A stretch of DNA of 45,846 nt, taken from contig JANMPT010000016.1 in NCBI GenBank assembly GCA_031370005.1, positions 1 through 45,846 of the forward strand. Reading direction: 5' to 3'. The stretch comes from Bdellovibrionales bacterium (GTDB taxonomy: Bacteria > Bdellovibrionota > Bdellovibrionia > Bdellovibrionales > Bdellovibrionaceae). A program made the translations under genes and the position numbers. Shown here piece after piece: positions 909 through 30,859 of the stretch. The notes beneath the pieces were generated by a model. The model made no database searches. It was not told the origin of the DNA and saw only the letters and a list, made by a program, of their open reading frames with translations. The first letter of the stretch is position 1, and every line of letters starts with the position of its first letter.

Positions 909-958
909 TGAATGTTGGCAGCAATGCCAAGGATTTTTAGAGAATCTGCCAACATTCA
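909..958. promoter_or_regulatory. 13-bp perfect inverted repeat upstream of the TIGR02147 gene (putative operator)
   Basis: TGAATGTTGGCAG (909-921), 24-nt spacer, CTGCCAACATTCA (946-958); nested TTGGCA-N4-TGCCAA at 915-930. Confidence 0.55.
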
Positions 959-995
959 CCTTGTATCTCGCCAACGCCATTGCTACACAAACCTT

Positions 996-1847
996 ATGAA
1001 GATGGCAGTGAACCTCTATCAATTTACGGACTACCGAACCTACTTAGTAGCTTATGCACAAGATATGAAGCATAAGCGCAAGCAATGGTCCTATGGAGCC
1101 TGGGCGCGCGTACTAGGGCTTAAATCCACGTCCTCGATAACTAAAATAGTTCAAGGCCAGCGTGAGCCCGGTGAAGAAATAACCGAGCGTCTGATCAAAT
1201 ATTTTGAGTTCTCTGACAAACAGGCGCGTTATTTTCGTGACCTCATTCAGCTTGAAAAAATCAATAGAGATCCCAAACTAAGTGTTCTGCTTATTGAAAA
1301 AATGGGTAAAGAGTATTCTGACTCTTCCATTCGAATTATGGACAACAAGAGCTTTATGACTATCTCTCACTGGTACTACCTCGCTCTGAGAGAACTCTGT
1401 CGAACCAAGACTTTTAAAGAAGATCCTGAATGGATCTCTAGTCGATTTCTTTATAGGGTGACTCCACGAGATATTAGGCAAGCCATTCAAGTTCTGTTGG
1501 ACGTCGGTCTTTTGGCTCGTGAAAAAAACGGCAAACTTTATTTGGCCGAAGGACGAATAGACACGACTACGGACATTTCCTCCGAAGCTATAAAGCGTTA
1601 TCATGAACAAATGTTGGAACATGCCAAAATCGCGGTTCGAGAAACTCCCGTAGAAGAGCGGGAAATAACATCTACTACTTTAGTTATGAGTTCAAAAAAT
1701 ATAGGCATGGCTAAAGAGTTAATTCGCGAATTCAGGCAGAATTTTGAGCGCCTTCTCGAGGAAGATACGGGCGATCGGGTATTTCAAATACAAATACAAC
1801 TTTTTCCACTCACGGTTAAGGAAAATCACAAGGAGTACAAAAAATGA
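996..1847 (+). CDS. TIGR02147 family protein (N-terminal HTH plus DUF4423)
   Basis: Family motifs NLYQFTDYRTYL, WARVLGLKSTSSITKIVQGQR, WYYLALREL, AIKRYHEQML, EREITSTT, QIQLFPLT. Start placed at ATG 996 (or 1002) rather than 912. Confidence 0.85.
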   Translation: MKMAVNLYQFTDYRTYLVAYAQDMKHKRKQWSYGAWARVLGLKSTSSITKIVQGQREPGEEITERLIKYFEFSDKQARYFRDLIQLEKINRDPKLSVLLIEKMGKEYSDSSIRIMDNKSFMTISHWYYLALRELCRTKTFKEDPEWISSRFLYRVTPRDIRQAIQVLLDVGLLAREKNGKLYLAEGRIDTTTDISSEAIKRYHEQMLEHAKIAVRETPVEEREITSTTLVMSSKNIGMAKELIREFRQNFERLLEEDTGDRVFQIQIQLFPLTVKENHKEYKK

Positions 1848-3949
1848 AAAGATATCTAAGCATGTTGCTCTCCGCAGTTATTTGTGCAGGAGTCCCTCTT
1901 TGGGCCTTTGCCGGCGGGTCGGTAGGTAATGGTGGAGATGGAATTGTCTGTAGGAGCGGCACTAAGCCGGAAGTTGAAACTTTAGATCTTTATGAAGCCA
2001 GAACCATGAGAGGCATTACTGCCGAACTGGGTGGACCTCAGCTTAGTTGGAGAGACAAATTAGACATCGCACTGACTCGTCTGGAAAAAATCGATCACTT
2101 TAGGGCAGCCCACTATCAAGACAGATTAAATACTTTTTTAAGTGAAGCTTCCTTTATTCCGGGTATTAAGCTCATTGACATCCCAGACTCGCAGCAAGTG
2201 ATACTTCCATCACAGTGCACGATTGAGCAGGTAGCCATTCAGAAGCCACCACAATTTCCAGGAGATGCTTACTACGTTGTCAATAAAGACCTCTGGGATC
2301 TTATGAGTACGGATAATCAGGCGGCGCTCGTATTGCATGAAATTGTCTATCGGGAAGCCATTGAGTTTGGCCATCAAAACTCGATATCGGCTCGTTATTT
2401 TAATTCATTAGTATTGTCCAATCGTTTTGATAAAATAGCTCTCAATGATTATATTCATCTCCTATATCGGTTGCCATTTGGGACTGCCACAGTCCGAGGA
2501 GTTGAGGCCGCATTGTTTGTGCCAACTTCTGGTGGTGGCTTGAACTTCAGTGAAAGCCTTGAAGATCAGTTCAATCCTAATGTCTTGCCGGAATCGCTTT
2601 ACGTTTACCGGGACAGTCGATTACAAGTGAGTTCAAATTGGCTCAATGTTGCTGGAAATTCACAGATTTCATTTTTTTCTAATGGAAATGTGAAGTCGGC
2701 AGCCGTGGTTTTGGGCCAGTGGTCTCAGAATCAAAATACATACTTTCTCAGTGGAAACACGAAATTCTTTGACAACGGCCGGCTTGACGCGATCCATCTG
2801 GCTCAGCCGCAGATTGTAAGTTTGCCAAAAAGGAGCGCTTCTTTATCTGTCGAATCGGGATCAGGTGTGACCTTCTTTGCGTCTAATGGCGACATTAAAG
2901 AGATAGATCATGTTCGTGACGGTAGTATCCAGCAAAATGGAATTACTTATACAAATCTCTATGGTGCGATCTCATTTTATGAGAGTCAGATTATAAATTA
3001 TTTGAGTACGAAGACCTCTGTTGCCGTTACAACGCCATGGCTGAGCCTGCAGACCCTACCGCAAACACCCATATTCTTTTACCCAAATGGCGAATACAAC
3101 TCTATGACCGTTCAGACGGGTAAGGCACATTTGGCAAATCAAAAACCAGGACAATTTTTTAATTTAGCTCCAAAAGAAACACTTGTGCTTAACCCCAACA
3201 AAAGCGTGAACACCTTGAGGGTGACTCAGGGGGACTTGGAGCTGGACGGAATTCAGTATTCTTTGGTTTCTGTTTCTACCGAAATACAAATCAACGGCGC
3301 AGGGGTGGTTCTTAGTTTGTCTATGGCAAATGGAGAATTTACTTTAAAGCAGCAGGCTATTAGTCTATCGACGCGCGGGAAAATGGACTATGTTTTAACC
3401 ACCAGCGGAAACAGAACATTCTATAAGTATAAGTATGGGTATATAACTGGGGTTAACCTTTTAGTAGCGGGTGTCCAACTTCCCGTAAATGAAATGGATT
3501 CTTTTTCATTTTCTCCCGACTCGGTCTCAATCAAACTTTCACGACAAAATGACGCCGTTCGCGAGGACGGTTCGCCCTATGAGCTGCACGGCTATGTCGA
3601 ACTTTCTGGTGTAATTTCACCGCCGACTGGATATAAATTTGTAAGATGCTCTGATGAAATCAGGTTTTATAACAATGGAAAGATTCAATACTGTGCGGTG
3701 ATATACAATCCACGTGGAAAACCTTTTCCTGTCACTATGCTGACCCCTCAGGGGCCACGAGACTTCGCAGTAGAGTGGAACTATTCGCCTCAACATCAGT
3801 TCCCAGAATTTTTCTTTTTCGACAACGGGCAGGTAAAAAAAGGTACTCTTGGAAGACAAGCAACATTTATTGATGTTAACGGTGCAACCGTTATCAAAAA
3901 TGCAGATGAAGTGGTTGAGTTTGATGGAAATGGTAAATTACTTCGATAA
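1844..3949 (+). CDS. large secreted hypothetical protein: GNGG N-terminal domain plus beta-rich F(F/Y)xNG repeats
   Basis: Signal peptide ending AFA; GGSVGNGGD; LDLYE; AALVLHEIVY; repeated FFSNG, FFDNG, FYPNG, FYNNG, FDGNG. ATGA overlap with the upstream gene. Confidence 0.75.
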   Translation: MKRYLSMLLSAVICAGVPLWAFAGGSVGNGGDGIVCRSGTKPEVETLDLYEARTMRGITAELGGPQLSWRDKLDIALTRLEKIDHFRAAHYQDRLNTFLSEASFIPGIKLIDIPDSQQVILPSQCTIEQVAIQKPPQFPGDAYYVVNKDLWDLMSTDNQAALVLHEIVYREAIEFGHQNSISARYFNSLVLSNRFDKIALNDYIHLLYRLPFGTATVRGVEAALFVPTSGGGLNFSESLEDQFNPNVLPESLYVYRDSRLQVSSNWLNVAGNSQISFFSNGNVKSAAVVLGQWSQNQNTYFLSGNTKFFDNGRLDAIHLAQPQIVSLPKRSASLSVESGSGVTFFASNGDIKEIDHVRDGSIQQNGITYTNLYGAISFYESQIINYLSTKTSVAVTTPWLSLQTLPQTPIFFYPNGEYNSMTVQTGKAHLANQKPGQFFNLAPKETLVLNPNKSVNTLRVTQGDLELDGIQYSLVSVSTEIQINGAGVVLSLSMANGEFTLKQQAISLSTRGKMDYVLTTSGNRTFYKYKYGYITGVNLLVAGVQLPVNEMDSFSFSPDSVSIKLSRQNDAVREDGSPYELHGYVELSGVISPPTGYKFVRCSDEIRFYNNGKIQYCAVIYNPRGKPFPVTMLTPQGPRDFAVEWNYSPQHQFPEFFFFDNGQVKKGTLGRQATFIDVNGATVIKNADEVVEFDGNGKLLR

Positions 3950-4537: not shown

Positions 4538-4641
4538 ACACAAAAAGCTAGCATTCTAGCCTTTCGTATTGACTAGGGCACCCTATCTAAAATGCAATTG
4601 GAATTTGAAGCTTGTCCATAACTGAAAGGGGATCCCTCATT

Positions 4642-6117
4642 ATGTTTATGAATCTTCGAACTCAACTCAGAGGTATTGTGCTCGCAGCAGCACTGGTATC
4701 CATTGGTCTCGTCGGCTGTACTCCGGATAAATCAACCACGCTAAACAATGATAAATTAGGTGGCTTTGCGGAGACAACGAATGTCACAGGTTTGAATGTT
4801 GTAGGTGAGGATCTTCAACCGCTGGCCGGGGCAAAAATTCTAATTGGGACTGAGCTCAATACTCCATTCACTAATAACTATTTGGTGGCCGATATCTTAG
4901 GTCGCATCGATCTTCCCACAGCTTGGATGGATGCTCAGCCTGTGACTATTGAAGCCCCAGGTTATGTTAGAGCTACTTATTATGCTCAAACTCCTGGCGA
5001 TCACATTTATCGCTTGCGTAAAAAAAGCAATATTGGCACGACTCAGTATGAAGTGAAGGGCGTGACCACAGGCCATAATATCGCTGATCATGATGGCTAT
5101 ATTGATTTTGGCCTCGTAATACCAGCAATGACTCGCAATGACTTCTTGAGCTTCAATATTGATTCTGTGATTAGCCCTCAATATGACAGGATCACTATTT
5201 TGGGTCAAGATGCTGATATTCCGAGCAATATTACTTTTCCAAAGCAAAAAGAGTCTTATATTTTGCCAGTGACTGTTAGCAAACCCGGCTATCGCGTTTA
5301 TTTTTCAGATGGCGGAGTTCAAAAAGTTTTTGCGGCCCGCGGTCGTTTTCCATTCAAAGAAGTTGTTGATAAGCTCCGCAACAGAGCTCCTTTCTATGAG
5401 ATTGTAAATGATTTCACTATCTCTGGTGGAGGAGTCAAAGATCTCAATCTGACAGCTGCCAGCTCGCAAGTGGATCTTTCAGTGAAAGACTTAGACTTCA
5501 AAAACAAAGTGATGGTCACGGCTCCTGCAATTAGCGGGGATGAAACTTTGATGGTCGTGGGTATGGCTCATATGGCCGAGTACATGATTCCGACCGACGT
5601 AAAGGCCCTTAAATCTAGACAAAAACTAGGAATCAGCATGTTGGATGCAAATGGTTCCGTGTTTTCAATTCTTAAAAAAACCAAGGATATGGAGTCCAAT
5701 GACCCAGGAGCAGACCGTTTAAGCGCTGTTTTGGTTCCGGCCGGCACGGGGGCCTCTCCTGAATTCTTGCCAATTCTGGCAGATCCTAGCCTGGCGAGCA
5801 ATGGCGACATGCTTGTGCCAAAAATGCTACCAATTGCTGGCGTGAATGCTGTTGCGACCTATGCCGTGATTTCACAGGTTCAGCAGGTTCTACAGGGAGC
5901 ACAAAAAGTGAAGGTCAATAGCAGCTATTGGGAGATGTATGCTCCCAACTGGCTGGAAGTAATTAATTTGCCAAAATGGCCAGAGGGCAATCACCTGACT
6001 GGAAAAAAGCATTGGGAAATTAACTTGATTGGCAGCCTCACTGTTTCTCAAGTTGATCTCGGACCCGCAATGATTAATAATGCTACCCATGTCACGCATT
6101 CTTCTTTGGATTTCTAG
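4642..6117 (+). CDS. lipoprotein, hypothetical (N-terminal carboxypeptidase-regulatory-like beta domain)
   Basis: Lipobox LVGC; VVGEDLQPLAGAKILIG...VTIEAPGY pattern; ATG at 4642 after AAGGGG. Confidence 0.7.
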   Translation: MFMNLRTQLRGIVLAAALVSIGLVGCTPDKSTTLNNDKLGGFAETTNVTGLNVVGEDLQPLAGAKILIGTELNTPFTNNYLVADILGRIDLPTAWMDAQPVTIEAPGYVRATYYAQTPGDHIYRLRKKSNIGTTQYEVKGVTTGHNIADHDGYIDFGLVIPAMTRNDFLSFNIDSVISPQYDRITILGQDADIPSNITFPKQKESYILPVTVSKPGYRVYFSDGGVQKVFAARGRFPFKEVVDKLRNRAPFYEIVNDFTISGGGVKDLNLTAASSQVDLSVKDLDFKNKVMVTAPAISGDETLMVVGMAHMAEYMIPTDVKALKSRQKLGISMLDANGSVFSILKKTKDMESNDPGADRLSAVLVPAGTGASPEFLPILADPSLASNGDMLVPKMLPIAGVNAVATYAVISQVQQVLQGAQKVKVNSSYWEMYAPNWLEVINLPKWPEGNHLTGKKHWEINLIGSLTVSQVDLGPAMINNATHVTHSSLDF

Positions 6118-6592
6118 CTTTATTCTTATATGTTTTGTCTTTATCGAGTCTGGTTGCAGTCTTTTCGACAGGCAGCCAGACCCGGAAAATGCTATTCTAA
6201 AGCAATCCATTCATCAAAAAGTTTTCTTCGCCCCTTATGACAGCGTATGGAAAGCGGCTCATACTTCGATTAGGTATCCTATTGCAGTTGAAAATCAAGA
6301 CACTGGTTATTTAGAAACAGAATACATCAAAGGAGTGGATGGTTTTTTGCCTCCAGAGGTTTCTAAGCCACCATCAGCGGGTATTCGCTATAAATTAGTT
6401 TTTAATTTTGCAAAGGGAAAAACTGAAGGCAGGGAGTCTACTCGAGTCACTATAGAGAAGAAAATTGAAAGACTGCGTGATTTCTTCTCAGAAGCAGATA
6501 GCTTGGCATCAGATGGCCTTGAGGAAAAGGCGCTCTTTTATCGTATTGAACGCGAAATTGTAATCGATTCAGCACTTAAAAACGCTCAATAG
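6080..6592 (+). CDS. outer-membrane lipoprotein, BamC-like helix-grip domain
   Basis: Hydrophobic leader plus SGC; APYDSVWKAA...I...NQDTGYLETEY pattern. Start may be 6089. Confidence 0.6.
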   Translation: MLPMSRILLWISSFILICFVFIESGCSLFDRQPDPENAILKQSIHQKVFFAPYDSVWKAAHTSIRYPIAVENQDTGYLETEYIKGVDGFLPPEVSKPPSAGIRYKLVFNFAKGKTEGRESTRVTIEKKIERLRDFFSEADSLASDGLEEKALFYRIEREIVIDSALKNAQ

Positions 6593-6619: not shown

Positions 6620-9600
6620 TCACTCGTCGCGCAGTGCCTCAGGTGTAAAGTCGGAAGTTTTTAGATTTTGATCAACTTTAATTTTAGATAGAGAAATTTC
6701 AGTGGCGCGATTATTTTGCATATTGTGGATCATTATTTTTCTTGCGCGCCATTTCCCAGTGCCAACTTTTATATAGTCACTGAAGTCGATGACTTTTAAT
6801 AACTTACCCTGTTTATCATAGCATTCCGTCTTGCTGGGCAGATACTCATTGGCCGAAATATAGCTAATAATCTTTGAATAATTTGCTGATGTTTGATTTA
6901 CGTCACTTTCGACCACAAAATATTTTTGATTTTCAATTTTTATTTCTTTTTTGAGAACGTTTTTAATACTGCTATCTACATTGATGTTGAAATCTTCAGT
7001 ATTCAGTTCTGAGCCTAAGATAGAGTTTGATTCGTGCGAAGAGGGTGCCAGTCGGCGAATTTGTTTGCTCGAAGGAAGGTAAAGCCATTTTTCCTCTTTG
7101 CCGTTTCTGTACGTTGCCAGCAATGAGGTTCCCTTAAGATCTTTCGGACTTTCCATATGTACCAGCACATAGTGTTCTTTCTTGGAAGGGCTGAGTCGCA
7201 GAATCTTCATACCACGCACTTTAAAACTCTCATCTGCCTCGATAATTTTCATCGAGGCATCGAATTCCTCATCTTTTGCGCTCATGCGGCTAGCAATTTC
7301 TTGAGTGATCTTGGAAATATCAATCGGAGCGAGGTTTGCGCGTGAGAAGCTTTGTGGCCCCAAGAGTATAAATAAAAATCCAAACATTGAAAGACCAAGC
7401 ACAAGTTTCTCCTTTCCTGTTTTATTCATTTTCGGTGTTGAAAGCAGCCAAGGACAGCTTTTTAGGAGTGTTGGAAGAAGAATCAAATCCCCGATAAGTC
7501 CTGCTAACATGGTTAAGACCATATAAAACCCAAAAGTTCTGTTCATTGCGAAATATGAGATAAGAAATACCGATAATCCTGCAAGTAAAGTTAAACTTGA
7601 TATGAGACAGGGGTTGCCCTCAAGCCAAAGGGCTTTTTCCACATTTAAGCGATTGATAGGGCTATTTTTTTGTATGCTTCTTAACCTTTCGAGAAAGTAA
7701 ACGGTATTGTTAAATGCCAGTCCCAAGGCGATCGAAAAAATAATCGCAATACTTGGTTTTATTGGAGTTTGTGAAATGGCAAGAAATCCTAAGAGGACTG
7801 CCGGAGGAACAAGGTTCGGAATGCAAGCAAGTATCGACCATCGTACGGAGCGAAATACAAAAATTAAAATCACGAAGATAGCAAACATTGACTGCCAGAA
7901 TCCATAGATGAGTTCTTTTGAAAGCTGATTGTTAAGCGTGTGAATAGTAGAGCCCATTCCAGTGGCATTAACTTTAAACTCTGGAAAAAACTTCTGGGCC
8001 TTGCTTTTAAGCTTTTCAATTAGCAAAAAGACTTCATCAGATGGAAGATCTCTCGTTCGAATTGCTATGCGGGTTTTAGAAGAGTCTGTACTTAGATAGT
8101 TTTTAAGCGGGCTTTGGTCGGAAAGCGAATGCAAAAATATAATCTCCGCTGTTGCGGCCCTGCTTGTTGGCAAGCGATTGCGGGTGAGGCTTGAGGCTGC
8201 AATTAAATCAGAAAGACCTACAACGCTGCCTACACCCGGATAACTGCGATAGTGATGAATAAGCTTATCCAGTTGACTCAGCAGCTGTGGGTCGCTCCAT
8301 ATGTCTTTAGTGCCACGTAGTTCTATATCAATAGGAATCATTCCTCCAAGCTTATGATCAATCAGCTCTGTGGAGTTTCGCACCTGATGATTAGTTGGTA
8401 AATCATCAAAAAGTCTTGCGGTCCAAGAAAGTGTTTGGCCTTTTATGGCTAGAGCCACGGAAACTGCGATGATAAGAAAGGCCACTGCACCACTTTTATG
8501 GAAGAAGTATAAACTCCAGCGGGCCTTTGCCCAGGCCCATTTACGAGCTCGCGGTTTTGGCAAAAGAATTAAAAGCGGAACTAAAAGAATATTGGTAACA
8601 ATCCAGCAAATAAAAATTGCCATAGCGACAGTAAAGCCAAAGTCTCTGATTATTGGCACTTTGGTGGTGGCAAGACTCAGAAATCCAATCATCGGAGTTA
8701 GAGCTGCTAAGAAGTTCGCACTTAGCAAGGATTTCATGGTTTTAAGAATTAATTTGTAGTGGCTAGTTGAAGATTCCAGCCTGTCTTCTTCCACCAGACG
8801 AAGCATCGAGTGAATGCATAAAGACATGACCGTAACAGTTGCCAGAATAGGAATCATGGTAGAAAGCACAGTGAAGGTATAGCCAAAAACTGCCATAGCA
8901 GCCAAGATCATAAGATTTGCGACTACGGTAATGATAAAGGAAATAAGTACCGGAGTAATATTGCTAAAAACAATCGATAGTACGATGAGGCAAGCCAAAA
9001 ATCCAAGCCCCACGAAATTACGGATCTCACTTTGGAGAAGTGTACTGATATCGGACTGCACTGCCGGGGAGCCGCCGATTTCTACTTTAGCAAAGGGCAG
9101 ATCCCTTTGTACGGTAGTTTCGATGTGGGATTTCAGACCTTGTAGGTCCGCTGCTGAAATTTCATTAATGTTGATAATCACAGAGACGGTTTTAGCGTCT
9201 CTAGAGATCAAAGCTGGGGTGAGTATACTATTCTTAAGAACTTGTTCCTGCCACTTCCCCGTTGGAATGCTTTTAAGCAAGGGACCTATGCTAAGACCCT
9301 CTCTGGAGCTAATAGCACCTTCTACCGTTGCAAGGCTTAAAGAGTTTTTGACCCCAGCAATTTTACTTAGATCCTCAGTTGTTTGTTTGAGTGCTTGAAT
9401 TTTTTCCGCTTCCAACCAGCTTTGTTTGTCGCCAAAAATTTGTAAGGTGGCAATAAATGGCTGCAAGTCAGATATTTGAAAAGTTTTTTTTGTTTTTGCA
9501 TCCAGTGCCAGAAGTGAGTTTTGTTTGGGTAGAAATTGACTCAAAGAATACTGAGTTTGTAATTTCGAAAAGCAAAAGGCGCTCAAAACTGTCAATACGC

Positions 9601-9691
9601 TAATCAAAATCAATATTGCTATACAAGCTCTTTTGACAAAATCTGGAAGTGCATCCTTAACCAATGATGAACTCACAACGGAATTGGTCAC
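6620..9691 (-). CDS. MMPL/RND-family transporter fused to a C-terminal LolA-like (outer-membrane lipoprotein-sorting) domain
   Basis: Two repeats of TM, periplasmic domain and five TMs (ACIPNLVP, FLSLATTKVPIIRDFG, GDLILLPTLL); C-terminal domain with SPKDLKGTSLL, WLYLPSSKQIRRL, ILGSELNTED, CYDKQGKLLK, FTPEAL. Confidence 0.85.
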   Translation of the reverse strand: MTNSVVSSSLVKDALPDFVKRACIAILILISVLTVLSAFCFSKLQTQYSLSQFLPKQNSLLALDAKTKKTFQISDLQPFIATLQIFGDKQSWLEAEKIQALKQTTEDLSKIAGVKNSLSLATVEGAISSREGLSIGPLLKSIPTGKWQEQVLKNSILTPALISRDAKTVSVIININEISAADLQGLKSHIETTVQRDLPFAKVEIGGSPAVQSDISTLLQSEIRNFVGLGFLACLIVLSIVFSNITPVLISFIITVVANLMILAAMAVFGYTFTVLSTMIPILATVTVMSLCIHSMLRLVEEDRLESSTSHYKLILKTMKSLLSANFLAALTPMIGFLSLATTKVPIIRDFGFTVAMAIFICWIVTNILLVPLLILLPKPRARKWAWAKARWSLYFFHKSGAVAFLIIAVSVALAIKGQTLSWTARLFDDLPTNHQVRNSTELIDHKLGGMIPIDIELRGTKDIWSDPQLLSQLDKLIHHYRSYPGVGSVVGLSDLIAASSLTRNRLPTSRAATAEIIFLHSLSDQSPLKNYLSTDSSKTRIAIRTRDLPSDEVFLLIEKLKSKAQKFFPEFKVNATGMGSTIHTLNNQLSKELIYGFWQSMFAIFVILIFVFRSVRWSILACIPNLVPPAVLLGFLAISQTPIKPSIAIIFSIALGLAFNNTVYFLERLRSIQKNSPINRLNVEKALWLEGNPCLISSLTLLAGLSVFLISYFAMNRTFGFYMVLTMLAGLIGDLILLPTLLKSCPWLLSTPKMNKTGKEKLVLGLSMFGFLFILLGPQSFSRANLAPIDISKITQEIASRMSAKDEEFDASMKIIEADESFKVRGMKILRLSPSKKEHYVLVHMESPKDLKGTSLLATYRNGKEEKWLYLPSSKQIRRLAPSSHESNSILGSELNTEDFNINVDSSIKNVLKKEIKIENQKYFVVESDVNQTSANYSKIISYISANEYLPSKTECYDKQGKLLKVIDFSDYIKVGTGKWRARKIMIHNMQNNRATEISLSKIKVDQNLKTSDFTPEALRDE

Positions 9692-9774
9692 TGAGGTTCC
9701 TTTGCAAAAAATTAAAAAAGGATTAACATGGGTGCAGTCTAATGATGCTATTACAGCTTCACGCGAGGGACAAG

Positions 9775-11283
9775 ATGCACATCAATCGTTTTATAATTTT
9801 ATTAATAGCTTTTATTTATTTATTGGGCGTTCCTGTTGCTTCTGCCAGTTCAAACCTTGAAACAGAATTTGAAATGATACTTCCACAAGCTTTCCAACAA
9901 AATCTTATTGAGCAAGAGTGGCAAGCTTTACAAAAAAATGAGCTTAAGATGAGCTGGCATATCCCGGATCAGGTTTATGATGCGCCAGATGTAAAAGTTC
10001 ACTTATCTGGTTTGCTATTGGATTTGAAAACGAAACTAAAAAATCCAGGTCAGAGCCAAGGGGCCGAAAGCATCACTCTTGAATCAAAAGATCTTCAGGC
10101 AGAGTTAAACATTCAGGCTGTAACGATTGACCAATATATTGAAAAAGAAGTCGGGGGAGTCATTGGTCGTTTTCGTATTCAGGCTCGTTGTGAGGGCATT
10201 CGACTTCACATGGATACTGGCAAAGGCTCTTTTGCCATGAAGCTCAGTCCCTCCTTTGAGGGCAGTTTAGTTCGGGCCCATGTGAATGATGTGAGTCTCT
10301 CATGGACTCCAGATGCTTGGAGCCTTGGTGATATGAAATGCACTGGCGCCCAAGGTTTTGATGACATAATTAAAGCCGAGGTTTTAAAGCTCACCGGGGA
10401 TTCTTCTATTGTCGATCAGCAAAAAGATATTTTACGACAAAATGTACAGGACTACGTGAATAAATATTCTATCGACCTGGCTCAATCCCGAAATTTGACG
10501 AGCACGCGACCTGATATTAAAGTCTCTATGCGAATCAGAGAATTTGCAGCAACTGAAAAAAAAGCTCTAGTAGTAAGAGGAATCATTCGCGCTGAGTTTA
10601 TGAAGTTTAAGGGCAGCGATAATATCTATTTAAAACTTTCAAAACAAAGTTCTAAAGACGACTCCTCGACGAACGCTAGGCTTCGCATCCCAGAAGAATT
10701 TGTATTGATAATGGCAAAGCAGGCCTTTGGTGCAAACTCCTGGTTGCAAAGAGTGTACTCAAGTCAACTTCCAGGATTTTCTTCTCTGATGCAGTCGAGA
10801 TTTAGTCAATTTTTTATTTGGTGCGAGTTGATGAGTTTTCCAAAATCCGCTGAGTTTTTATTTGATACGTATTCGCAAAAAAATATTGAAGTCGCTGGGG
10901 AAAATTTAAATTATCAAGTGAGGGCGTCATTGCGGGCTGAAATGTATGCCCCTAAGAATGGCAGATATATTCCATTTATGAATTTTAGAGCGCCGTTTTC
11001 AAGTCAGGTGCAGTTGTCTGTTAAGCAGGGAAATGTTTTGGCTAAGTTTTCAGCGGTATCTTTTGATTTGCAAGAACAGTGGGAGCCTTTATATATCGAG
11101 AGATACCACCCATCTCAGGCTTTTGCTCGCAACAAAATTAATACACGTCTTGAAAAGGCGATGGAAGGATTCGCAACTCTCTACTCCCTGCCTAGGATCC
11201 CATTGACTGATAAGATATTTCTGCAACTTGAAAAGGTTCAGAAGTCCACTCAAACAACGGATTTAGTTTTTTACCTGAAGTAG
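9775..11283 (+). CDS. secreted hypothetical protein, possible BPI/LBP (TULIP) two-domain fold
   Basis: Signal peptide ending ASA; RBS GAGGGA before ATG 9775; alternating long amphipathic beta-strands and helices in two roughly 250-aa halves. The fold is an inference. Confidence 0.6.
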   Translation: MHINRFIILLIAFIYLLGVPVASASSNLETEFEMILPQAFQQNLIEQEWQALQKNELKMSWHIPDQVYDAPDVKVHLSGLLLDLKTKLKNPGQSQGAESITLESKDLQAELNIQAVTIDQYIEKEVGGVIGRFRIQARCEGIRLHMDTGKGSFAMKLSPSFEGSLVRAHVNDVSLSWTPDAWSLGDMKCTGAQGFDDIIKAEVLKLTGDSSIVDQQKDILRQNVQDYVNKYSIDLAQSRNLTSTRPDIKVSMRIREFAATEKKALVVRGIIRAEFMKFKGSDNIYLKLSKQSSKDDSSTNARLRIPEEFVLIMAKQAFGANSWLQRVYSSQLPGFSSLMQSRFSQFFIWCELMSFPKSAEFLFDTYSQKNIEVAGENLNYQVRASLRAEMYAPKNGRYIPFMNFRAPFSSQVQLSVKQGNVLAKFSAVSFDLQEQWEPLYIERYHPSQAFARNKINTRLEKAMEGFATLYSLPRIPLTDKIFLQLEKVQKSTQTTDLVFYLK

Positions 11284-11284
11284 T

Positions 11285-12595
11285 TTAAAAACTATGGCTT
11301 AAGGATATTCGATAGTTGTCATTGTCATTGTAAACACCGAGCGGAGTATCTTTATTGCCCGAGATAAGCTCTGCACTTAGCTGCAGAGTCCAAGCGTCAT
11401 ATATTCGCCGTGTAACGGAGTATTGTTGAAAATTGCTGTAACGAAGTGAATCATAGAGTGCGAAAGTGCTCAGGGCCCATCGGTCCCCCCAACTGAAACG
11501 ACCGCCGGCCATCCAAGTATTGCGAAATATTTCTGCCACCGAGAGGTTCGAATTATTTTCTTTCTCGGAGTTGATGTACGAGTACTGAAGAATTCCCACA
11601 AGCAGACCCTCCGCTCCAAGCTTGAAGTTTTTCTCAAGCCCCACTACGTTTTCATGGGTCCATCCGGGCAAAAGTGGATCATCCCCCATGCTTTGGGAAT
11701 AACTCGTGGCAAACTTAAGAAGAAAATTCATCTGTGAACTTACCCAGGAAAATCCAGCTACTTTATATCGATAGTTTTTGGTGCCAAGAACAATATTGGG
11801 ATCTGTCCGAAAAATGACCTTAGGAGAAATTTGAACTACTGTGCCGGTGACTTTGGGTTGTATGAGGGGGAAGCTTGCAACCCCTTCAAAGCCGTTGAGG
11901 CTGAGATCTACAGACCCGAGATGCCATTGCAACCTTAGGCCAATGTTGTTGTCGGGGGCGTTGTTTATATTTTCACGGCTTTCATAAGTGTAATTTAAGT
12001 TCTCTGGGAGAAGCAGAACCACATTGTTATCGATAGAGCGTGGAATATAGATTTGTCGTGGAAGCCAACGACTATGTGTCCCTGGCAGAATTGAACTTTG
12101 ATTCTTAGGTATATAAACAAACTCCTGCTCGCTTGTTTCAGAATTGTGAGAAAGGAGCATAGACAGGGCTCCGAGTTTTACCGAGTGAAGTGGGTCATAG
12201 TACTGGCGCATATTCACAACATCTAAGGGGTTATAACCATCGGTGACGCCCCAATTAAGGATATTGTTGCCCACCTGCACACTGGTTGTATCTTTTTTGT
12301 ATTTAAGGTTCACCTCGCTTGCATCAAAAAAGACCTGTTCCTCCTTGGATTTGTTTTGAGGATCCCATAAAAAATTTGGTTTGAAATAAAAACGATAGGA
12401 GTCAGAGAGCCTTCCCGAGAGTGTTGGAATCAGCTCCAGTCGATTGAGGCTGTTATTGGTGTCTTCGCCAGAAGCCTTAGGCCAATAGACCGATTCAATT
12501 TTCGCATCTGTTGTAAGATTCCAGGTGTTTTTGGCTAAAACAAGAAAAGGCAGCTGAGACGAGCAGATGATTAAAACACTAGTTAAGCGGAGCAT
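11285..12595 (-). CDS. outer-membrane beta-barrel protein (DUF1302-like, the type found beside MMPL/LolA-like genes)
   Basis: Signal peptide; GNNILNWGVTDGYNPLDVVN motif; amphipathic strands; C-terminal beta-signal YRISLSHSF. Confidence 0.75.
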   Translation of the reverse strand: MLRLTSVLIICSSQLPFLVLAKNTWNLTTDAKIESVYWPKASGEDTNNSLNRLELIPTLSGRLSDSYRFYFKPNFLWDPQNKSKEEQVFFDASEVNLKYKKDTTSVQVGNNILNWGVTDGYNPLDVVNMRQYYDPLHSVKLGALSMLLSHNSETSEQEFVYIPKNQSSILPGTHSRWLPRQIYIPRSIDNNVVLLLPENLNYTYESRENINNAPDNNIGLRLQWHLGSVDLSLNGFEGVASFPLIQPKVTGTVVQISPKVIFRTDPNIVLGTKNYRYKVAGFSWVSSQMNFLLKFATSYSQSMGDDPLLPGWTHENVVGLEKNFKLGAEGLLVGILQYSYINSEKENNSNLSVAEIFRNTWMAGGRFSWGDRWALSTFALYDSLRYSNFQQYSVTRRIYDAWTLQLSAELISGNKDTPLGVYNDNDNYRISLSHSF

Positions 12596-12753: not shown

Positions 12754-12792
12754 TTGAATCGGGTGTGTTTAAATATTGAACGTGGAGGATTT

Positions 12793-13332
12793 ATGAAAAG
12801 CGTGTTGAAATCTTTAGTTATAGCTGGAGTACTCATACTTAGCGCGTGCGCTAAAGACAGTGGTGGTGGTGGTGCGACCCCAGCCGTGGCAGTAGTGCCT
12901 CAGTCGAATAACTGTGCCGTTGGCCAGGTATACACTCAATATGGTTGCTTGGCTCAGAGCAGCTGCCCAGTAAACTTTGGAATGTACAATAATCAATGTA
13001 TTCCGGCGACAACTGCGAATACGAATGGTTCATGTGCTGTTGGCCAAGTATACACTCAATATGGTTGTTTGGCTCAGAGCACCTGTCCAGTGAACTTTGG
13101 AATGTATAATAACCAATGTGTTCAAGCTTATGCCAATGGCAATAACAACGGTTATTATGGCAATGGAAATGGTGGATACTACAATGCGTACTACTACCAA
13201 AATAGAAATGCATATTATGGCAATGGTGGCGGTTATACCTACGGCTATCCTTATGCCACAGGCGCTGGTATCGGAGCTGGTTTTTATATTGGTGGACGCG
13301 TATCGACTCCGGGCATGTACTACGGTTACTAA
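12793..13332 (+). CDS. lipoprotein with two 4-Cys repeats and a G/Y/N-rich low-complexity tail
   Basis: RBS GGAGGA, lipobox LSAC; CAVGQVYTQYGCLAQS(S/T)CPVNFGMYNNQC twice; tail NGNNNGYYGNGNGGYYNAYYY... Confidence 0.8.
   Translation: MKSVLKSLVIAGVLILSACAKDSGGGGATPAVAVVPQSNNCAVGQVYTQYGCLAQSSCPVNFGMYNNQCIPATTANTNGSCAVGQVYTQYGCLAQSTCPVNFGMYNNQCVQAYANGNNNGYYGNGNGGYYNAYYYQNRNAYYGNGGGYTYGYPYATGAGIGAGFYIGGRVSTPGMYYGY
12913..13119 (+). repeat. intragenic duplication of 87 bp, period 120 bp
   Basis: 12913-12999 and 13033-13119 encode 29-aa units differing at one residue; most DNA differences are synonymous. Confidence 0.9.
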
Positions 13333-24510: not shown

Positions 24511-25109
24511 TGATATTTGACTTTAGTTTAGATCCTTTTTTGCACTTCTCAAACTTCCTTGAGGAGGCTAAAAATCGCGGGGAGCCTGAGCACAATGCTA
24601 TGGCTCTTGCGACTGTAGGAACTGATCTTAAGCCCTCCGTTCGAATTGTTTATTTCAAAGGACTTGTTCGCGGAGGTCTTTCTTTTTACTGCAATTACGA
24701 CTCTACCAAGGCTAAGAATATTGAGCAAAACAATCAGGTTTGCGTGAATTTCTATTATCCAAAAGAGTGGTATCAGATGCGTATTGCTGGCAAAGCTTCG
24801 AAACTGACTCGGGACGAGAGCGCGGCCTATTTTGCAACTCGCAATCGCCTCAGTCAACTCGGCGCTTGGGCTTCAAATCAAAGTCAAGAAATCCCCGGTG
24901 CGGAATATTTTCAAAAGCGGCTGGCTGAATACGAAAAAGCCTATGAAGGGCAAGAAATTCCATGCCCTGAAAATTGGGGTGGCTATCATGTGATCCCAGA
25001 AGAATTTGAATTTTGGTTCGGTCAAGAGGGGCGCCTTCATGGACGCTACATCTATCAACGAGTGGCCTCAGACGTTGGCAAGTGGCGCTGCTTTATGAAG
25101 GCTCCATAA
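24510..25109 (+). CDS. pdxH: pyridoxamine 5'-phosphate oxidase
   Basis: NAMALAT, PSVRIV, SQLGAWASNQS, PENWGGY, EFWFGQEGRLH. Confidence 0.9.
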   Translation: MIFDFSLDPFLHFSNFLEEAKNRGEPEHNAMALATVGTDLKPSVRIVYFKGLVRGGLSFYCNYDSTKAKNIEQNNQVCVNFYYPKEWYQMRIAGKASKLTRDESAAYFATRNRLSQLGAWASNQSQEIPGAEYFQKRLAEYEKAYEGQEIPCPENWGGYHVIPEEFEFWFGQEGRLHGRYIYQRVASDVGKWRCFMKAP

Positions 25110-26209
25110 ACTTTCATGATCTCGGCAGTTATTTTTTCGGTGGAGAACAGTTCTACGGCCATCTTACGTGACTCTTGCCCCATTTTCTTGCAAAGCTCTG
25201 AGTTTGAAATAAGTTTTTCAAGCGCATCAGCTAAGGCTTGCGCATTTTTTATAGGCACTAAAAATCCATTGGATCCTTCTTTAACTGTTGCCCGACATCC
25301 GGGTGCATTGCTTGTGACAATGGGTTTTCCCGCAGCCATTGCCTCAAGTAGGGCCATGGGCAAACCCTCTCGATAAGACGGCAGGCAGGCAATGTCGGCA
25401 GACTTAAGAATTGAAACCATCTCTTTTTGAAATCCCAAAAAGTTCGCAATATTAGAGTGTTTCCACTCGTTGATTTGTGACTCGGAAATAGATCCAGGAT
25501 TTCCGGGATCAATATCTCCGGCAATGACGGCTTCGAACTTAAGATCTTTTTGTTTAAGAATTTGTATGGCATCCATGAATTCGAAAATGCCTTTTTCTAT
25601 CAGCAATCGAGAGGCCAGAAGGATTTTCGGTATGCTATTATGAACGGTGGACGGAGTAAATTTGTAAATATCAACGCCTGAACCTTGGACAAGAAAACAG
25701 CGATCCTGCCGAATGATATGATGCCTGATAAAAAAACTTCTATCGTCTTCATTCTGAAAAATAACTCGTACCCTTGAGCTTGCAAAACAAAAACGATACA
25801 AATTCTTGACCAAAACACCCAAGACTTTGGCTTTTAACGAATTTGAGGTGAAAACGAATCCAAGTCCTGTAATGGAGTTCACGATTTTTGGTACGCCAGC
25901 AAGTCTTGCTGCTAAGCTACCGTAAATGACAGGTTTAATTGTAAAATGGTGGACCAAATCTGGTTTGTTTTCAGAATATAGTCGGTAGTATGCAACAATG
26001 GCGCGAAGCTCAGCAAGCGGATTGATGCCTTTTCGAGTCATGGGAATGCCCAAAAGACTTGGGCTTGGGATTTCTTTCAGCGCGGCTGTAGGGTCCTCAG
26101 AGTCGGGTAAAATCACCTGAACATCATGACTCTCTCTGAGCTTCAAGTACAGGCCGCGTCGATGAGAAATAAATGAGCCCAAAGTGTTTACTGCAAGGAT
26201 GATTTTCAT
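25055..26209 (-). CDS. GT4 glycosyltransferase (CapM/PglA-like)
   Basis: HHFTIKPVIYG, ITGLG, FQNEDD, GSGVD, PSYREGLPMALLEAMAAG. Confidence 0.9.
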   Translation of the reverse strand: MKIILAVNTLGSFISHRRGLYLKLRESHDVQVILPDSEDPTAALKEIPSPSLLGIPMTRKGINPLAELRAIVAYYRLYSENKPDLVHHFTIKPVIYGSLAARLAGVPKIVNSITGLGFVFTSNSLKAKVLGVLVKNLYRFCFASSRVRVIFQNEDDRSFFIRHHIIRQDRCFLVQGSGVDIYKFTPSTVHNSIPKILLASRLLIEKGIFEFMDAIQILKQKDLKFEAVIAGDIDPGNPGSISESQINEWKHSNIANFLGFQKEMVSILKSADIACLPSYREGLPMALLEAMAAGKPIVTSNAPGCRATVKEGSNGFLVPIKNAQALADALEKLISNSELCKKMGQESRKMAVELFSTEKITAEIMKVYGAFIKQRHLPTSEATR

Positions 26210-26295
26210 AGTGTTAAGCTTTAGTTTGAGATAGCTTTTGCGTCAATTAAAGATAATAATCCGGCTTTGTGCTAGATGTAATTTTAGGGGGATCT

Positions 26296-27063
26296 ATGAA
26301 GGCTGTACTTCTTGCCGGTGGCTTGGGGACACGAATTAGCGAAGAGAGTGTTTTGAAGCCAAAACCGATGATTGAAATCGGCGGAAAGCCTATTTTATGG
26401 CATATCATGAAAATGTATGCCGCACATGACGTTAACGAATTTGTTATTTGTTGCGGTTACAAAGCCTATGTCATCAAAGAATATTTTGCGAATTACTTTA
26501 TTCACAACTCTGACATTACTTTCGATGTTAAAAATAATAAAATGGAAATCCATCAAAATAGCGCAGAGCCTTGGAAGGTCACAGTTGTTGATACTGGTGA
26601 AGATACTATGACGGGCGGGCGTTTGAAGCGTGTTGCGCGATATATTGGCAACGAGGACTTTTGTTTTACCTATGGCGATGGTGTTAGTGACGTAAATATC
26701 AGAGCATCCATTGAATTTCATAAATCCCACGGGAAACTTTCAACGATCACAGCCGTTCAACCTCCTGGGCGTTATGGTGCCTTGAAAATGAATGGTAATA
26801 AAGTTGAAAGCTTTATGGAAAAACCAAAAGGTGACGGAGGCGTTATTAATGGCGGTTTTTTTGTTCTCAACAGTAAAGTCATTGAATACATCAAAGAAGA
26901 CTCCACCATTTGGGAAAAAGAACCGATGGAAAAACTTGCAGCCGACGGCCAAATGCAAGCCTTCGTTCATGAGGGCTTTTGGCAGCCCATGGATACCTTA
27001 AGGGATAAGAAGCATCTCGAAGAACTTTGGAGTGCTGGAAAGGCCCCATGGAAAATTTGGTAG
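26296..27063 (+). CDS. rfbF: glucose-1-phosphate cytidylyltransferase
   Basis: [51 protein letters not shown]. Confidence 0.96.
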
Positions 27064-28139
27064 TCAGTGCTGAGTTCTGGCGGGGCAAGCGGGTTTTTCT
27101 AACAGGACATACCGGTTTTAAGGGCAGCTGGATGGCTTTGTGGCTTAAAAGGCTTGGTGCAAAGGTTACAGGCTTTGCTTTAAGTCCCGATACGCAGCCA
27201 AGTCTTTTTGGCGAGATCGAAAATGAACTGGATATCAAATCCGTTATTGGCGACATTTGTAATTTTGAATTGCTAAATGCCACGATGCAGGCGGCAAATC
27301 CTGAGGTCATTTTCCATATGGCAGCTCAGCCCTTGGTTCGCTATTCCTATGATCACCCCCTTGAAACATTTCAAACAAATATTATGGGCACTGCGAATCT
27401 TTTAGAGGCCGCGAGGCATTTGAAAAATTTAAAATCAATCGTGGTTATTACCACCGATAAAGTTTATGAAAACGCAGAGTGGGCCTGGTCTTATCGTGAA
27501 AATGATGTGCTCGGGGGCCATGATCCTTACTCAAGCAGTAAAGCTTGTGCGGAAATTGTCACAACGGCGATGCGAAAATCTTTTTTTTCAAAGCCTGGAA
27601 GCCCTGGGGTAGCCACAGTCCGAGCGGGTAATGTTATTGGTGGCGGAGACTGGGCCCTGGATCGTATCGTTCCTGACGTTATGAACGCGTTTCAAAAATC
27701 AGAGATCCTGAAACTTAGAAATCCAAAAGCCATTCGCCCATGGCAGCACGTCTTAGAACCGCTCGGTGGCTATCTTGCTTTGGGACAGAAGTTATTTGTG
27801 GAACCGACAGGTCCTTTTGCCTCTGCGTGGAATTTTGGCCCCTATGCCGACAATGCGGTGACAGTGGGCGAACTCGTTGCCCTGCTCTCTGCACATTGGC
27901 CCGGTGGGAAATGGGAGATCGATAAAGGCCAACATCCCCATGAGGCATTTTATTTAAAATTGGATAGTTCAAAAGCAAAGCACTATCTTGGTTGGCACTC
28001 GCTTTTAAATATTCAGAAGACGACACAAATAACCGTTGATTGGTATCGCCACTTTTTCAACAAAGAAGCCACAGCTTTTGCTTTATGTAATAAACAGATT
28101 GATGAATACTCTAAGGAACTAAACCATGTTGCCAAGTAA
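27048..28139 (+). CDS. rfbG: CDP-glucose 4,6-dehydratase
   Basis: [51 protein letters not shown]. Confidence 0.96.
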
Positions 28140-29475
28140 TGAAAATGAAGCGCGTGAGCACATTAAAAATCTCGTTGCTGATTATTATCATAAGTTTCAT
28201 GCGCCAAAGCAGAACCTCGATTTTGTTCCTGGCACCTCTCAAATTAATTATGGGGGCCGAGTTTACGACGAAAAAGAGATGGTCAATCTAGCTGACTCCA
28301 TGCTCGACTTTTGGTTAACCTCCGGTCGGTATTGTGATAGCTTCGAAAAACGTTTTGCAGAGATCATTGGCGTTAAGTATTCGCTGCTTGTGAACTCAGG
28401 GTCTTCGGCCAATCTTGTGGCATTTAGTGCATTGACGTCTCCATTGTTAAAAGAGCGTCAAATCAAAAAAGGCGATGAGGTGATCACTGTGGCCGCAGGA
28501 TTTCCCACAACGGTCAATCCAATTATTCAATATGGAGCGGTTCCAGTTTTTGTTGATATCTGTGTGGAGGATGGAACTTACAATATCGATGTTTCCTATT
28601 TAGAAGCCGCTCGCAGTGAAAAAACCAAGGCTGTGATGATTGCTCACACTCTTGGGAATCCTTTTAATCTTGAAGCTGTGGGTGCGTTTTGCAAAAAATA
28701 TAATCTTTGGTTGATTGAAGATAACTGTGATGCTCTGGGCTCTCGTTATAAGGCTCAGTATACAGGATCTTTTGGTGACATTGCCACCAGCAGCTTTTAT
28801 CCGCCTCATCATTTGACCATGGGCGAGGGTGGTGCTGTATACACTTCAAATCCCTTACTGAAGAGAGCAGCCGAGTCCTTTAGAGATTGGGGACGGGATT
28901 GCTGGTGTCCTTCGGGGAAAGACAATACCTGCAAAAAACGTTTTGGTTGGACACTTGGTGAGTTACCCAAAGGCTATGATCACAAATATGTATACAGCCA
29001 CTTTGGTTATAACCTTAAAGTGACTGAGATGCAGGCCTCGATTGGTTTAGCCCAATTGGATAAGCTCGAAGGCTTCAGCGAAAAAAGAAGAAAAAACTTT
29101 AAATTTCTTCGTGAGTCTTTATCGGGCTTGTCTGATTACTTTGTACTGCCAAATCCAACTCCCAATTCGGACCCAAGTTGGTTCGGTTTTTTATTAACGG
29201 TGCGGGACAATGCAGGCTTTTCACGAGATGAAATTGTTCGTCATTTGGAAGACAAGAAGATTCAAACAAGGATGCTCTTTGCCGGCAATATGATCCGCCA
29301 GCCTATGTTTGATCCTCTCCGTGGGTCCTCCTCGGGCTACAGAGTCATTAGCGAGCTTAAAGAAACAGATCGCGTTATGACAAATACATTTTGGGTGGGC
29401 GTTTACCCAGGGATGAAGTCTGGGGCCTTGGACTATATGGCGCAAACTATTACGAACTTTGCGAGAGCTAAATAA
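28126..29475 (+). CDS. rfbH: CDP-4-keto-6-deoxy-D-glucose 3-dehydrase (E1, DdhC)
   Basis: SFYPPHHLTMGEGG (His in place of the PLP Lys), Fe-S motif RDCWC...DNTC, YDHKY. Confidence 0.95.
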   Translation: MLPSNENEAREHIKNLVADYYHKFHAPKQNLDFVPGTSQINYGGRVYDEKEMVNLADSMLDFWLTSGRYCDSFEKRFAEIIGVKYSLLVNSGSSANLVAFSALTSPLLKERQIKKGDEVITVAAGFPTTVNPIIQYGAVPVFVDICVEDGTYNIDVSYLEAARSEKTKAVMIAHTLGNPFNLEAVGAFCKKYNLWLIEDNCDALGSRYKAQYTGSFGDIATSSFYPPHHLTMGEGGAVYTSNPLLKRAAESFRDWGRDCWCPSGKDNTCKKRFGWTLGELPKGYDHKYVYSHFGYNLKVTEMQASIGLAQLDKLEGFSEKRRKNFKFLRESLSGLSDYFVLPNPTPNSDPSWFGFLLTVRDNAGFSRDEIVRHLEDKKIQTRMLFAGNMIRQPMFDPLRGSSSGYRVISELKETDRVMTNTFWVGVYPGMKSGALDYMAQTITNFARAK

Positions 29476-30305: not shown

Positions 30306-30843
30306 GATGTTTCAGAAAACTGAAATTGAAGGCTGTTTTGTTTTTAAAAGTTCACTTTTTAAAGATAAGCGCGGATCTTTTTCAAAAATATATTCAAGCG
30401 AAATTTTTATGTCTTTGGGGCTTGAGATTCCCGTGGCGGAAGTTTTTTTTTCGAATTCTCATAAAAACGTTATCCGAGGGATGCACTTTCAGAGCCCTCC
30501 CCATGATCATGCCAAGATCGTCAGCTGCGTCGCTGGGCGGGTTTTGGACGTGGTCTTGGATTTACGCAAAAGCTCGTCAAGCTATGGCAAAGCCATGGGT
30601 ACAGAGCTCACTGCTTTGAATGAAATGACTTTATTTATTCCTAAGGGCTGCGCCCACGGGTTTTATTCTTATGAAGACAATAGCATCATTTGTTATATTG
30701 TTGAAACCAATCATCACAAAGATTCAGATAAAGGAATTTTATGGAATTCCTTTGGCTTTCAGTGGCCGCAGGAGCAGGTCATTCTCTCAGAGCGGGATCT
30801 TGAGTTCCCGACTCTGAAAAACTTCGTAAATCCATTTAAATAA
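30298..30843 (+). CDS. RmlC-family sugar epimerase (possibly an AscE-like 5-epimerase)
   Basis: DKRGSF, IRGMHFQ, DVVLDLR, IPKGCAHGF. Confidence 0.85.
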   Translation: MGEMFQKTEIEGCFVFKSSLFKDKRGSFSKIYSSEIFMSLGLEIPVAEVFFSNSHKNVIRGMHFQSPPHDHAKIVSCVAGRVLDVVLDLRKSSSSYGKAMGTELTALNEMTLFIPKGCAHGFYSYEDNSIICYIVETNHHKDSDKGILWNSFGFQWPQEQVILSERDLEFPTLKNFVNPFK

Positions 30844-30859
30844 ACTTGAAGAGGACTTA

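Follow-up and report, generated by a model that had tools for sequence, protein, structure and literature searches.

A three-gene locus in a Bdellovibrionales bacterium was found to join a predicted double TULIP protein of the BPI type to an MMPL transporter, a LolA-like periplasmic domain, and a predicted outer-membrane barrel. It lies in contig JANMPT010000016.1 (assembly GCA_031370005.1), of which a stretch of 45,846 nucleotides, referred to here as the window, was analyzed. This is a real, well-linked, and previously undescribed combination, and it is best read as a variant of the known cassette of RND transporter, LolA-like protein, and DUF1302-type barrel, with a predicted double TULIP as the fourth part. 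An earlier note, made from the sequence alone, had recorded three open reading frames (ORFs) here. The ORFs and their domains were confirmed: an MMPL::LolA-like fusion gene (6620-9691, minus strand; 1023 aa), a middle gene, hereafter the TULIP gene (9775-11283, plus strand; 502 aa), and a barrel gene (11285-12595, minus strand; 436 aa). The note had omitted that the middle gene lies on the strand opposite to both partners. It stands head-to-head with the MMPL gene across a divergent gap of 83 bp (9692-9774) and tail-to-tail with the barrel gene, the stop codons of the latter pair being 1 bp apart. A promoter scan found no sigma-70-like site wholly within the divergent gap and no regional sites above shuffles, and the promoter and terminator scan of the region gave no excess over shuffled sequence. 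Named homologs came from Bdellovibrio and Pseudobdellovibrionaceae. By gene sizes and order, the locus corresponds to Bd1992 (pump; 3042 bp), Bd1994 (TULIP; 1530 bp), and Bd1995 (barrel; 1311 bp) of Bdellovibrio bacteriovorus HD100, of which Bd1994 and Bd1995, unlike Bd1992, are annotated as hypothetical.

The assignment of the middle protein comes from its predicted structure. Searched by sequence, the 502-aa protein matched nothing significantly in Pfam (the LBP_BPI_CETP and LBP_BPI_CETP_C profiles included), NCBIfam, or the PDB, and a profile search gathered 384 representatives at E ≤ 0.001. The AlphaFold model of the mature chain, built from a 150-sequence alignment, had a predicted local distance difference test score (pLDDT) of 94.2 and a predicted TM-score (pTM) of 0.85. 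Foldseek ranked BPI first (E 2e-15), followed by LBP and CETP, and next the bacterial TULIPs OrfX3, P47, and OrfX2. An independent aligner matched 420 residues to BPI at Z 14.1 with a root mean square deviation (rmsd) of 8.2 (4-477 on 2-452) and reached Z 11.1 for CETP and Z 8.5-10.1 for the single TULIPs Der p 7, Takeout, and JHBP; in a first pass, just 4 of 48,161 chains reached Z 8. By alignment to BPI, the predicted model has the double-TULIP architecture of two tubular domains and a central sheet. The best structural matches, with both domains aligned, were human BPI, LBP, and CETP (PDB 1bp1, 1ewf, 4m4d, and 2obd), from which the middle protein differs in its low identity (8-12%, at rmsd 8-13), its bacterial origin, and its tie to a membrane transporter. 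The TULIP fold that the earlier note had suspected was thus recovered over the whole length of the model, and the two openings it had read as repeated are indeed modeled as strand followed by helix (E2-11/H13-29 and E276-281/H283-292, mature numbering). The internal repeat was weak but in register when the profiles of the two halves were compared (hhalign E 2e-4 over 66 columns, probability 46%). As a feature lead, the Atlas neighbors of the protein include LBP_BPI_CETP_C at 0.91.

Several features of the chain can be placed on this model. Residues 1-24 (9775-9846, plus strand), read by eye, resemble a signal peptide; 135 of the 149 homologs begin with such a hydrophobic segment, and no transmembrane (TM)-like stretch occurs in the mature protein. 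This supports export past the inner membrane, and of the word "secreted" in the earlier note nothing beyond that step was supported. The predicted N-terminal TULIP domain (9889-10578, plus strand), to which the single-TULIP matches fall, carries Cys139 and Cys189, invariant in 150 of 150 alignment rows, from which we infer a disulfide. The predicted C-terminal TULIP domain (10687-11190, plus strand; model range 280-447) contains the most conserved motif of the family. Many strands of the model have one apolar face, as expected of a hydrophobic lumen but equally of a packed core.

The partners were assigned as follows. The transporter part of the fusion, residues 1-745 (7457-9691, minus strand), is of the MMPL/HAE3 type of RND transporter. 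Pfam MMPL matched it in two stretches (E 5.8e-26) and TIGR00921 HAE3 covered residues 25-743 with 142.7 bits, under the cut-off of 351.9, and by these two models the pump has the MMPL repeat architecture with two periplasmic domains. Its profile matched MmpL4, MmpL5, SecDF, and HpnN. The LolA-like domain, residues 784-1023 (6620-7342, minus strand), matched PF17131 (E 2e-41, residues 840-1021) and DUF1329 (E 1.1e-12), as well as the solved LolA-superfamily proteins PDB 3bk5 (E 2.6e-25), 9tp6, 4z48, and 3buu. With Pfam MMPL and LolA_like PF17131 both found in the 1023-aa ORF, the fusion described in the earlier note holds. The linker after TM12 (7343-7456, minus strand) resembles a retained internal signal peptide, with an extra TM segment and a possible cleavage site. 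Its hydrophobic stretch recurs in 45 of 52 fusions, and a small-x-Ala motif follows in 37 of 52 compared to a background of 0.24. The fusion may be a polyprotein cut by signal peptidase at this linker. The barrel protein had no Pfam match. Its model, built from 54 homologs, had a pLDDT of 94.2 and matched porins and AlgE (E 1.6e-11 to 2e-9), the Atlas puts it beside a DUF1302 cluster (0.98), and Pfam DUF1302 matched 2 of the 54 homologs weakly. A beta-barrel fold is therefore predicted, in line with the outer-membrane barrel proposed earlier.

The genetic linkage of the three genes was apparent at several levels. First, 151 same-family genomes were searched with single proteins: the middle gene turned up in 79 of them, a barrel match in 90, and a LolA-like match in 105. 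After split matches were merged and the 35 weakest LolA-like rows (E above 1e-11) were left out, a LolA-like match lay no more than 12 kb from the middle gene, on its contig, in 73 of the 79 genomes, in every case upstream and on the other strand (head-to-head). The barrel was near in 72, both partners in 68, and neither in 3. Thirteen genomes had the barrel and seemingly no middle gene, and 10 of the 11 rechecked by profile gained it; in the other (G026), where the middle gene was not found on recheck, the contig stops at the pump's start. Second, among 251 sampled genomes of the phylum, with the pump subfamily called at E 1e-90, the middle gene was present in 42 and the pump in 37, all 37 falling within the 42, while 209 had neither. 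Of the five with a middle-gene match alone, one (L090) has a split pump where the contig ends, and the remaining four (L091 to L094) are weak matches in different surroundings. Third, 70 hand-picked loci, reduced to 66 after three refetches were dropped and one without the middle gene was set aside, had the pump in 58, the LolA-like domain in 57, and the barrel in 58. The order of the genes varied: 35 loci were window-like, 7 had the barrel behind the pump, 2 had the barrel co-oriented with the TULIP gene, and in L087 and L088 the LolA-like gene was separate and the whole locus co-oriented. Finally, the TULIP was found fused behind MMPL in place of the LolA-like domain in L071 (1285 aa) and P0175 (1281 aa) and in the partial P0158. 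When the 150-row alignment was used to look for longer, fused versions, none came up; since such fusions do exist, this search was insensitive. Co-occurrence, rearrangement, and fusion all show that the middle gene is genetically coupled to the other two, which answers the synteny question raised in the earlier note.

Cassettes of a similar kind are in print. DUF1302/DUF1329/BNR/RND gene sets include AmeABCD of Castellaniella defragrans and clusters of Shewanella and Pseudomonas (PMC6394551; 10.1101/072470; 10.1101/2020.07.04.188060). AmeABCD is tied to monoterpene tolerance (PMC6394551), one related triad to fitness on Tween 20 and butyl stearate (10.1101/2020.07.04.188060), and another, TOL_3187/TOL_3188 of Thalassolituus oleivorans, is induced on C28 alkane (PMC6304351). 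Like our locus, the AmeABCD type has an HAE3-type RND pump, a LolA-superfamily protein, a barrel (DUF1302 there, predicted and possibly DUF1302-like here), and a fourth exported protein, and it is linked to hydrophobic compounds. As described in those sources, the fourth protein is a YCF48/BNR propeller, whereas here it is a predicted double TULIP, the LolA-like part is fused, the genes are not co-oriented, and the pump lacks the canonical aspartates. The propeller model PF14870, the one family model used, was not found in the window's genome (99.8% complete). TOL_3187/TOL_3188 resemble the locus in having an MMPL::LolA-like fusion beside a porin-like gene; the available text of that paper describes no TULIP partner, and the long-chain-alkane induction is theirs (PMC6304351). 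TULIP and LolA-like neighbors also appear in other contexts in the Lipocone paper, as far as its accessible parts go (PMC12419801). No paper joining a double TULIP to an RND/LolA-like/barrel cassette, and no main-text paper on Bd1992, Bd1994, or Bd1995, was found in searches of mainly open-access literature.

Two known kinds of double TULIP were compared with the middle protein. TipA (Bd2538) of B. bacteriovorus is a solved, exported, BPI-like double TULIP for which lipid binding was shown and which binds and destabilizes bilayers (10.1101/2025.09.09.675085). It resembles the middle protein in these general features and in the organism group, and it differs in its length (572 aa), its co-oriented TipB partner, its separate locus, and its induction on prey entry, whereas the middle gene is followed by a convergent barrel gene. 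The words "MMPL" and "LolA" are absent from the preprint in the form available, and no transporter is named there (10.1101/2025.09.09.675085). TipA orthologs were located via a motif taken from the same source, and the one at locus L116 fit the paper's numbering at 17 of 17 checked residues, with a 171-aa TipB gene next to it. The identification of the middle protein as TipA was rejected, since TipA orthologs lie elsewhere, score about 0 bits against the family hidden Markov model (HMM), and have an hhalign probability of 0.2%. A TipA ortholog is also present in the window's genome, at C5:13219-14979 (E 6.5e-226). Together with the middle gene, this makes no fewer than two double TULIPs in one genome, predicted or known and unrelated to each other. 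The second kind, DUF4403, comprises predicted pseudo-dimeric TULIPs of diderm bacteria (PMC6791001), an architecture and setting shared with the middle protein; DUF4403 proteins are, according to that source, mostly lipoproteins, and the middle-protein family mostly is not. "DUF4403 family protein" is the automatic name of one middle-gene ortholog and of the top Atlas cluster. Membership was nevertheless not borne out: PF14356 had no candidate in the window's genome at E 1 and was not among the 25 families listed for 71 middle-protein homologs.

With these precedents, part of the background in the earlier note stands, as the MMPL/LolA-like/barrel triad is indeed in print, and part does not: the gap it saw in knowledge of bacterial TULIPs was overstated, TipA having already been solved as a double TULIP (10.1101/2025.09.09.675085). 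The partners of bacterial TULIPs were left open in the available text of PMC6791001. In this locus, a predicted double TULIP is accompanied by a membrane transporter, a periplasmic partner, and a barrel, and the question becomes testable in a genetically tractable predator, B. bacteriovorus, through Bd1992, Bd1994, and Bd1995.

The pump itself is unusual. RND pumps move protons via acidic residues in TM4 and TM10, with Asp-Tyr pairs in MmpL proteins (PMC8427324). In the window, the family profile aligns Ser290-Leu291 of TM4 (8819-8824, minus strand) to the Asp-Tyr relay pair of MmpL4, and Asn661-Asn662 of TM10 (7706-7711, minus strand) occupy the site of the Asp conserved in other HAE3/MMPL pumps and align to an Asp of SecDF. 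These sites were counted in 57 family pumps (leaving aside the window's own pump and a row with a gap) and in 25 control pumps, which were other MMPL-type pumps of the phylum taken from 30 loci, at least 680 aa long and with a family score below 400. An acid at 290/291 was present in 0 of 57 family pumps compared to 15 of 25 controls, at 661/662 in 9 of 57 compared to 24 of 25, and at both sites in 0 of 57 compared to 14 of 25. Column 661 alone was Asp in 9 of 58 family pumps and 24 of 25 controls. Even when any acid in TM4 283-293 or TM10 652-665 was accepted, 39 of the 57 family pumps had none and 18 had one, whereas all 25 controls did. In some family members, an Asp or Glu lies a helical turn earlier in TM4, or the TM10 Asp has been kept. 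Several of the controls were MMPL + LolA-like + barrel triads from genomes without the TULIP. Judged by these alignments, the TULIP-associated MMPL subfamily has mostly lost the canonical TM4/TM10 relay aspartates, which is new here. Other charged residues are near-invariant, namely, His294 (55 of 58), Glu691 (56), and Asp735 (57), and could form an alternative proton path. In a FastTree phylogeny, 59 TULIP-associated pumps fell on one side of a 99% branch, which was given little weight because the groups were partly set by HMM score and because FastTree was used.

The reading we favor, at somewhat better than even confidence, is that the three genes encode a single line of four parts for moving a lipid-like cargo through the envelope, with the TULIP as carrier, a pump that is likely weakly coupled or uncoupled, and a low-level accessory function. 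The four parts would be the inner-membrane MMPL, the LolA-like periplasmic carrier, the exported BPI-like double TULIP, and the outer-membrane barrel, the last two as predicted. Lipid would be held by the TULIP tube, either in the periplasm or next to the barrel, and passed to or from the LolA-like domain and MMPL. The periplasm measures at least 20 nm (PMC6791001), and because a double TULIP is shorter than this, at about 14 nm if TipA is taken as the guide, a hand-off is envisaged rather than a single bridge. The MMPL would act as a weakly coupled or uncoupled facilitator, lipid running down its gradient; this is the more likely mode because most family pumps are without an acid in TM4/TM10. 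The accessory function would lie outside prey invasion. As for direction, inward traffic (lipid uptake or recycling) and export are nearly balanced, with a slight lean to the former because related triads serve growth on fatty esters or the alkane response and because the relay is lost. Export is kept open by AmeABCD, MmpL7, and a proposal in 10.1101/072470. A more specific version is offered only tentatively: a CETP/BPI-like tube joined to a relay-less MMPL, with lipid exchanged or imported down its gradient via barrel, TULIP, LolA-like domain, and pump. If true, this would add a fourth architecture to those of Mla, Lpt/Lol, and the MCE/AsmA bridges, and a bacterial double TULIP would have a transporter assigned to it for the first time in the literature surveyed. 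The relay-less pump is a test case for whether RND/MMPL proteins of Gram-negative bacteria can import lipids or passively facilitate their movement. For the lipid conduit proposed in the earlier note, the predicted fold and the genetic coupling speak in favor, and a part in acquiring prey lipids at invasion is not supported.

A number of observations weigh against this reading. The model diverges from its best matches, with TM-scores to BPI and CETP of just 0.38-0.42 at rmsd 8-13. The three genes do not form a single operon, because the middle gene is on the opposite strand. In host-independent growth, Bd1994 changes 2.6- to 3.0-fold, Bd1995 0.27- to 0.34-fold, and Bd1992 0.68- to 1.01-fold (PMC2797640), and the opposite responses of Bd1994 and Bd1995 argue against tight co-regulation. 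Five of the 66 loci have a middle-gene match with no partner nearby, and in L033, L035, and L097 the TULIP, a stand-alone LolA-like gene, and the barrel are together with the pump on another contig. The L071 and P0175 fusions are sisters on the tree, so they probably reflect one event. The linkage counts overstate the association because the genomes are kin and not independent; retention through rearrangement is a stronger argument than the counts. Among 40 hand-picked neighbors (S8 peptidases, GT2, GH3, MFS, and hydrolases), no cargo-making enzyme or pathway recurred across families. Finally, MmpL7 has no relay, yet is needed for lipid export (PMC8427324). It resembles the family pumps as an MMPL protein without the TM4/TM10 Asp-Tyr relay, and it differs in belonging to a distant family and in exporting phthiocerol dimycocerosate (PDIM) in a different envelope; the accessible text mentions no LolA-like, TULIP, or barrel partner for it (PMC8427324). 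Because MmpL7 exports without a relay and the TULIP-associated family keeps other invariant charges, the missing aspartates are no proof of uncoupling or of direction.

The alternative that survives best, although we consider it unlikely, keeps the same four parts and thus the core of the lipid line and differs in energy and direction: an energized exporter of self-made lipid to the outer membrane or medium, resembling HpnN, BstABC, or AmeABCD and using a non-canonical proton path. Characterized HAE3/MMPL pumps export (PMC6394551; PMC8427324), the models of BstA and HpnN match the pump weakly, and the near-invariant His294, Glu691, and Asp735, together with the TM4/TM10 acid kept by 18 of 57 pumps, are compatible with such a path. 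Against this stand the 39 of 57 pumps without that acid and the lack of any recurrent biosynthetic gene among the 40 neighbors. A weaker alternative, improbable in our estimate, is that the TULIP is a client or effector of the transporter, a BPI-like membrane- or lipopolysaccharide-binding protein that is loaded with lipid or placed at the surface by it. The TULIP gene has its own transcription unit and is regulated opposite to the barrel in host-independent cells, some homologs lack a pump, 4 of 149 have a lipobox-like start by pattern, and TipA is itself a binder and destabilizer of bilayers (10.1101/2025.09.09.675085). The fusion to the pump and the strict co-occurrence, however, are explained no less well if the TULIP is a component. 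In the middle protein, the N-terminal half is acidic (pI 5.5), unlike the cationic N-domain of BPI.

Still less probable is the predator reading of the earlier note, that the system harvests prey lipids within the bdelloplast. Bdellovibrio uses prey lipids, as the introduction of the TipA preprint states (10.1101/2025.09.09.675085), the matches were confined to this phylum, the one phylum sampled, and the few RNA-seq reads were higher in growth phase than in attack phase (PMC3627812). In that data set Bd1992, Bd1994, and Bd1995 were flagged as not expressed, and because TipA was flagged likewise, it cannot separate the locus from TipA. On prey entry, by contrast, Bd1994 changed 0.70- to 0.75-fold, Bd1992 1.16- to 1.17-fold, and Bd1995 0.98- to 0.99-fold, compared to 3.2- to 4.2-fold for TipA (PMC2797640). 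The Bd1992 protein (5 peptides) was flat to 1 h and then was down by log2 0.69, 0.91, and 0.75 at 2, 5, and 7 h, whereas TipA rose by log2 +1.8 at 1 h (PMC12546842). Bd1994 and Bd1995 were not found in the 7 supplement files of that proteome searched, one of them partial, and the Bd tags of the locus were in none of 8 supplement files of a transposon sequencing study (PMC6561027), which is uninformative. Two genomes (G061 and G097, 99% complete) have the TipA motif and neither the middle gene nor the pump subfamily. The expression of the orthologs and these two genomes speak against a role in prey invasion, and the locus is probably not an invasion tool; the prey-derived lipid idea is unsupported on the same grounds, the orthologs not being induced on entry and the pump protein falling during growth in prey while TipA rises. 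The last alternative, that the middle gene is an unrelated bystander inside an ordinary barrel-MMPL-LolA cassette, could draw on its opposite strand and on other triads of the phylum in genomes without it and is largely refuted by the 37 of 37 co-occurrence, the retention through rearrangement, the fusion, and a G+C content (0.40) close to that of its neighbors (0.41 and 0.44).

Some minor observations concern the locus and its relatives. At the TULIP/barrel convergence (11281-11287), the gap is 1 bp in the window and 6 bp between Bd1994 and Bd1995 of HD100, with no terminator-like site. Given the near-zero gap and the opposite host-independent response, transcriptional interference or antisense overlap may set the TULIP:barrel ratio. 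The precomputed domains of one 851-aa family pump (P0352) include PF07238, which we take to be PilZ, and in B. bacteriovorus the barrel gene is preceded by a PilZ gene, Bd1996; control by cyclic di-GMP is possible. In that species, the end of the pump gene is flanked by a gene for a GH3-family adenylating enzyme (L103:651-2821) and by a TetR regulator (Bd1991), neither of which occupies this place in the window. In one genus, a GT2 glycosyltransferase gene lies between the pump and the TULIP gene in the orientation of the latter (L084:5312-6565 and L086:8089-9426), and a glycolipid cargo is possible there. In genus g3 (L047:743-1924, L058:544-1794, and kin), an S8 peptidase gene with a lipoprotein-like start lies directly upstream of the barrel gene and is co-oriented with it. 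Distant TULIP members in L091:6261-10813 and L092:3313-7887 have no pump and instead follow, in the same orientation, a 1030-aa S8 peptidase that carries FG-GAP repeats, and a third TULIP copy of one genome (G345; L073:6307-9543) precedes an AMP-binding enzyme gene away from any pump.

Elsewhere in the window, two co-oriented lipoprotein-like ORFs (4612-6592; 501 and 170 aa), with no Pfam match, converge on the pump's end, and farther out (912-3949) a DUF4423 gene precedes one for an exported, beta-rich repeat protein of 701 aa that has no family assignment. On the barrel side, a 192-aa lipoprotein-like ORF (12754-13332) has two Cys-rich repeats and a Gly/Tyr/Asn-rich tail. A surface-polysaccharide cluster occupies 25055-36125 (nucleotidyl transferase, dehydratases, a DegT-family enzyme, a flippase, and glycosyltransferases), and two AAA_14/DUF4143 ATPases and one AbiEi-type regulator lie at 36135-37310, 43523-44671, and 44976-45830.

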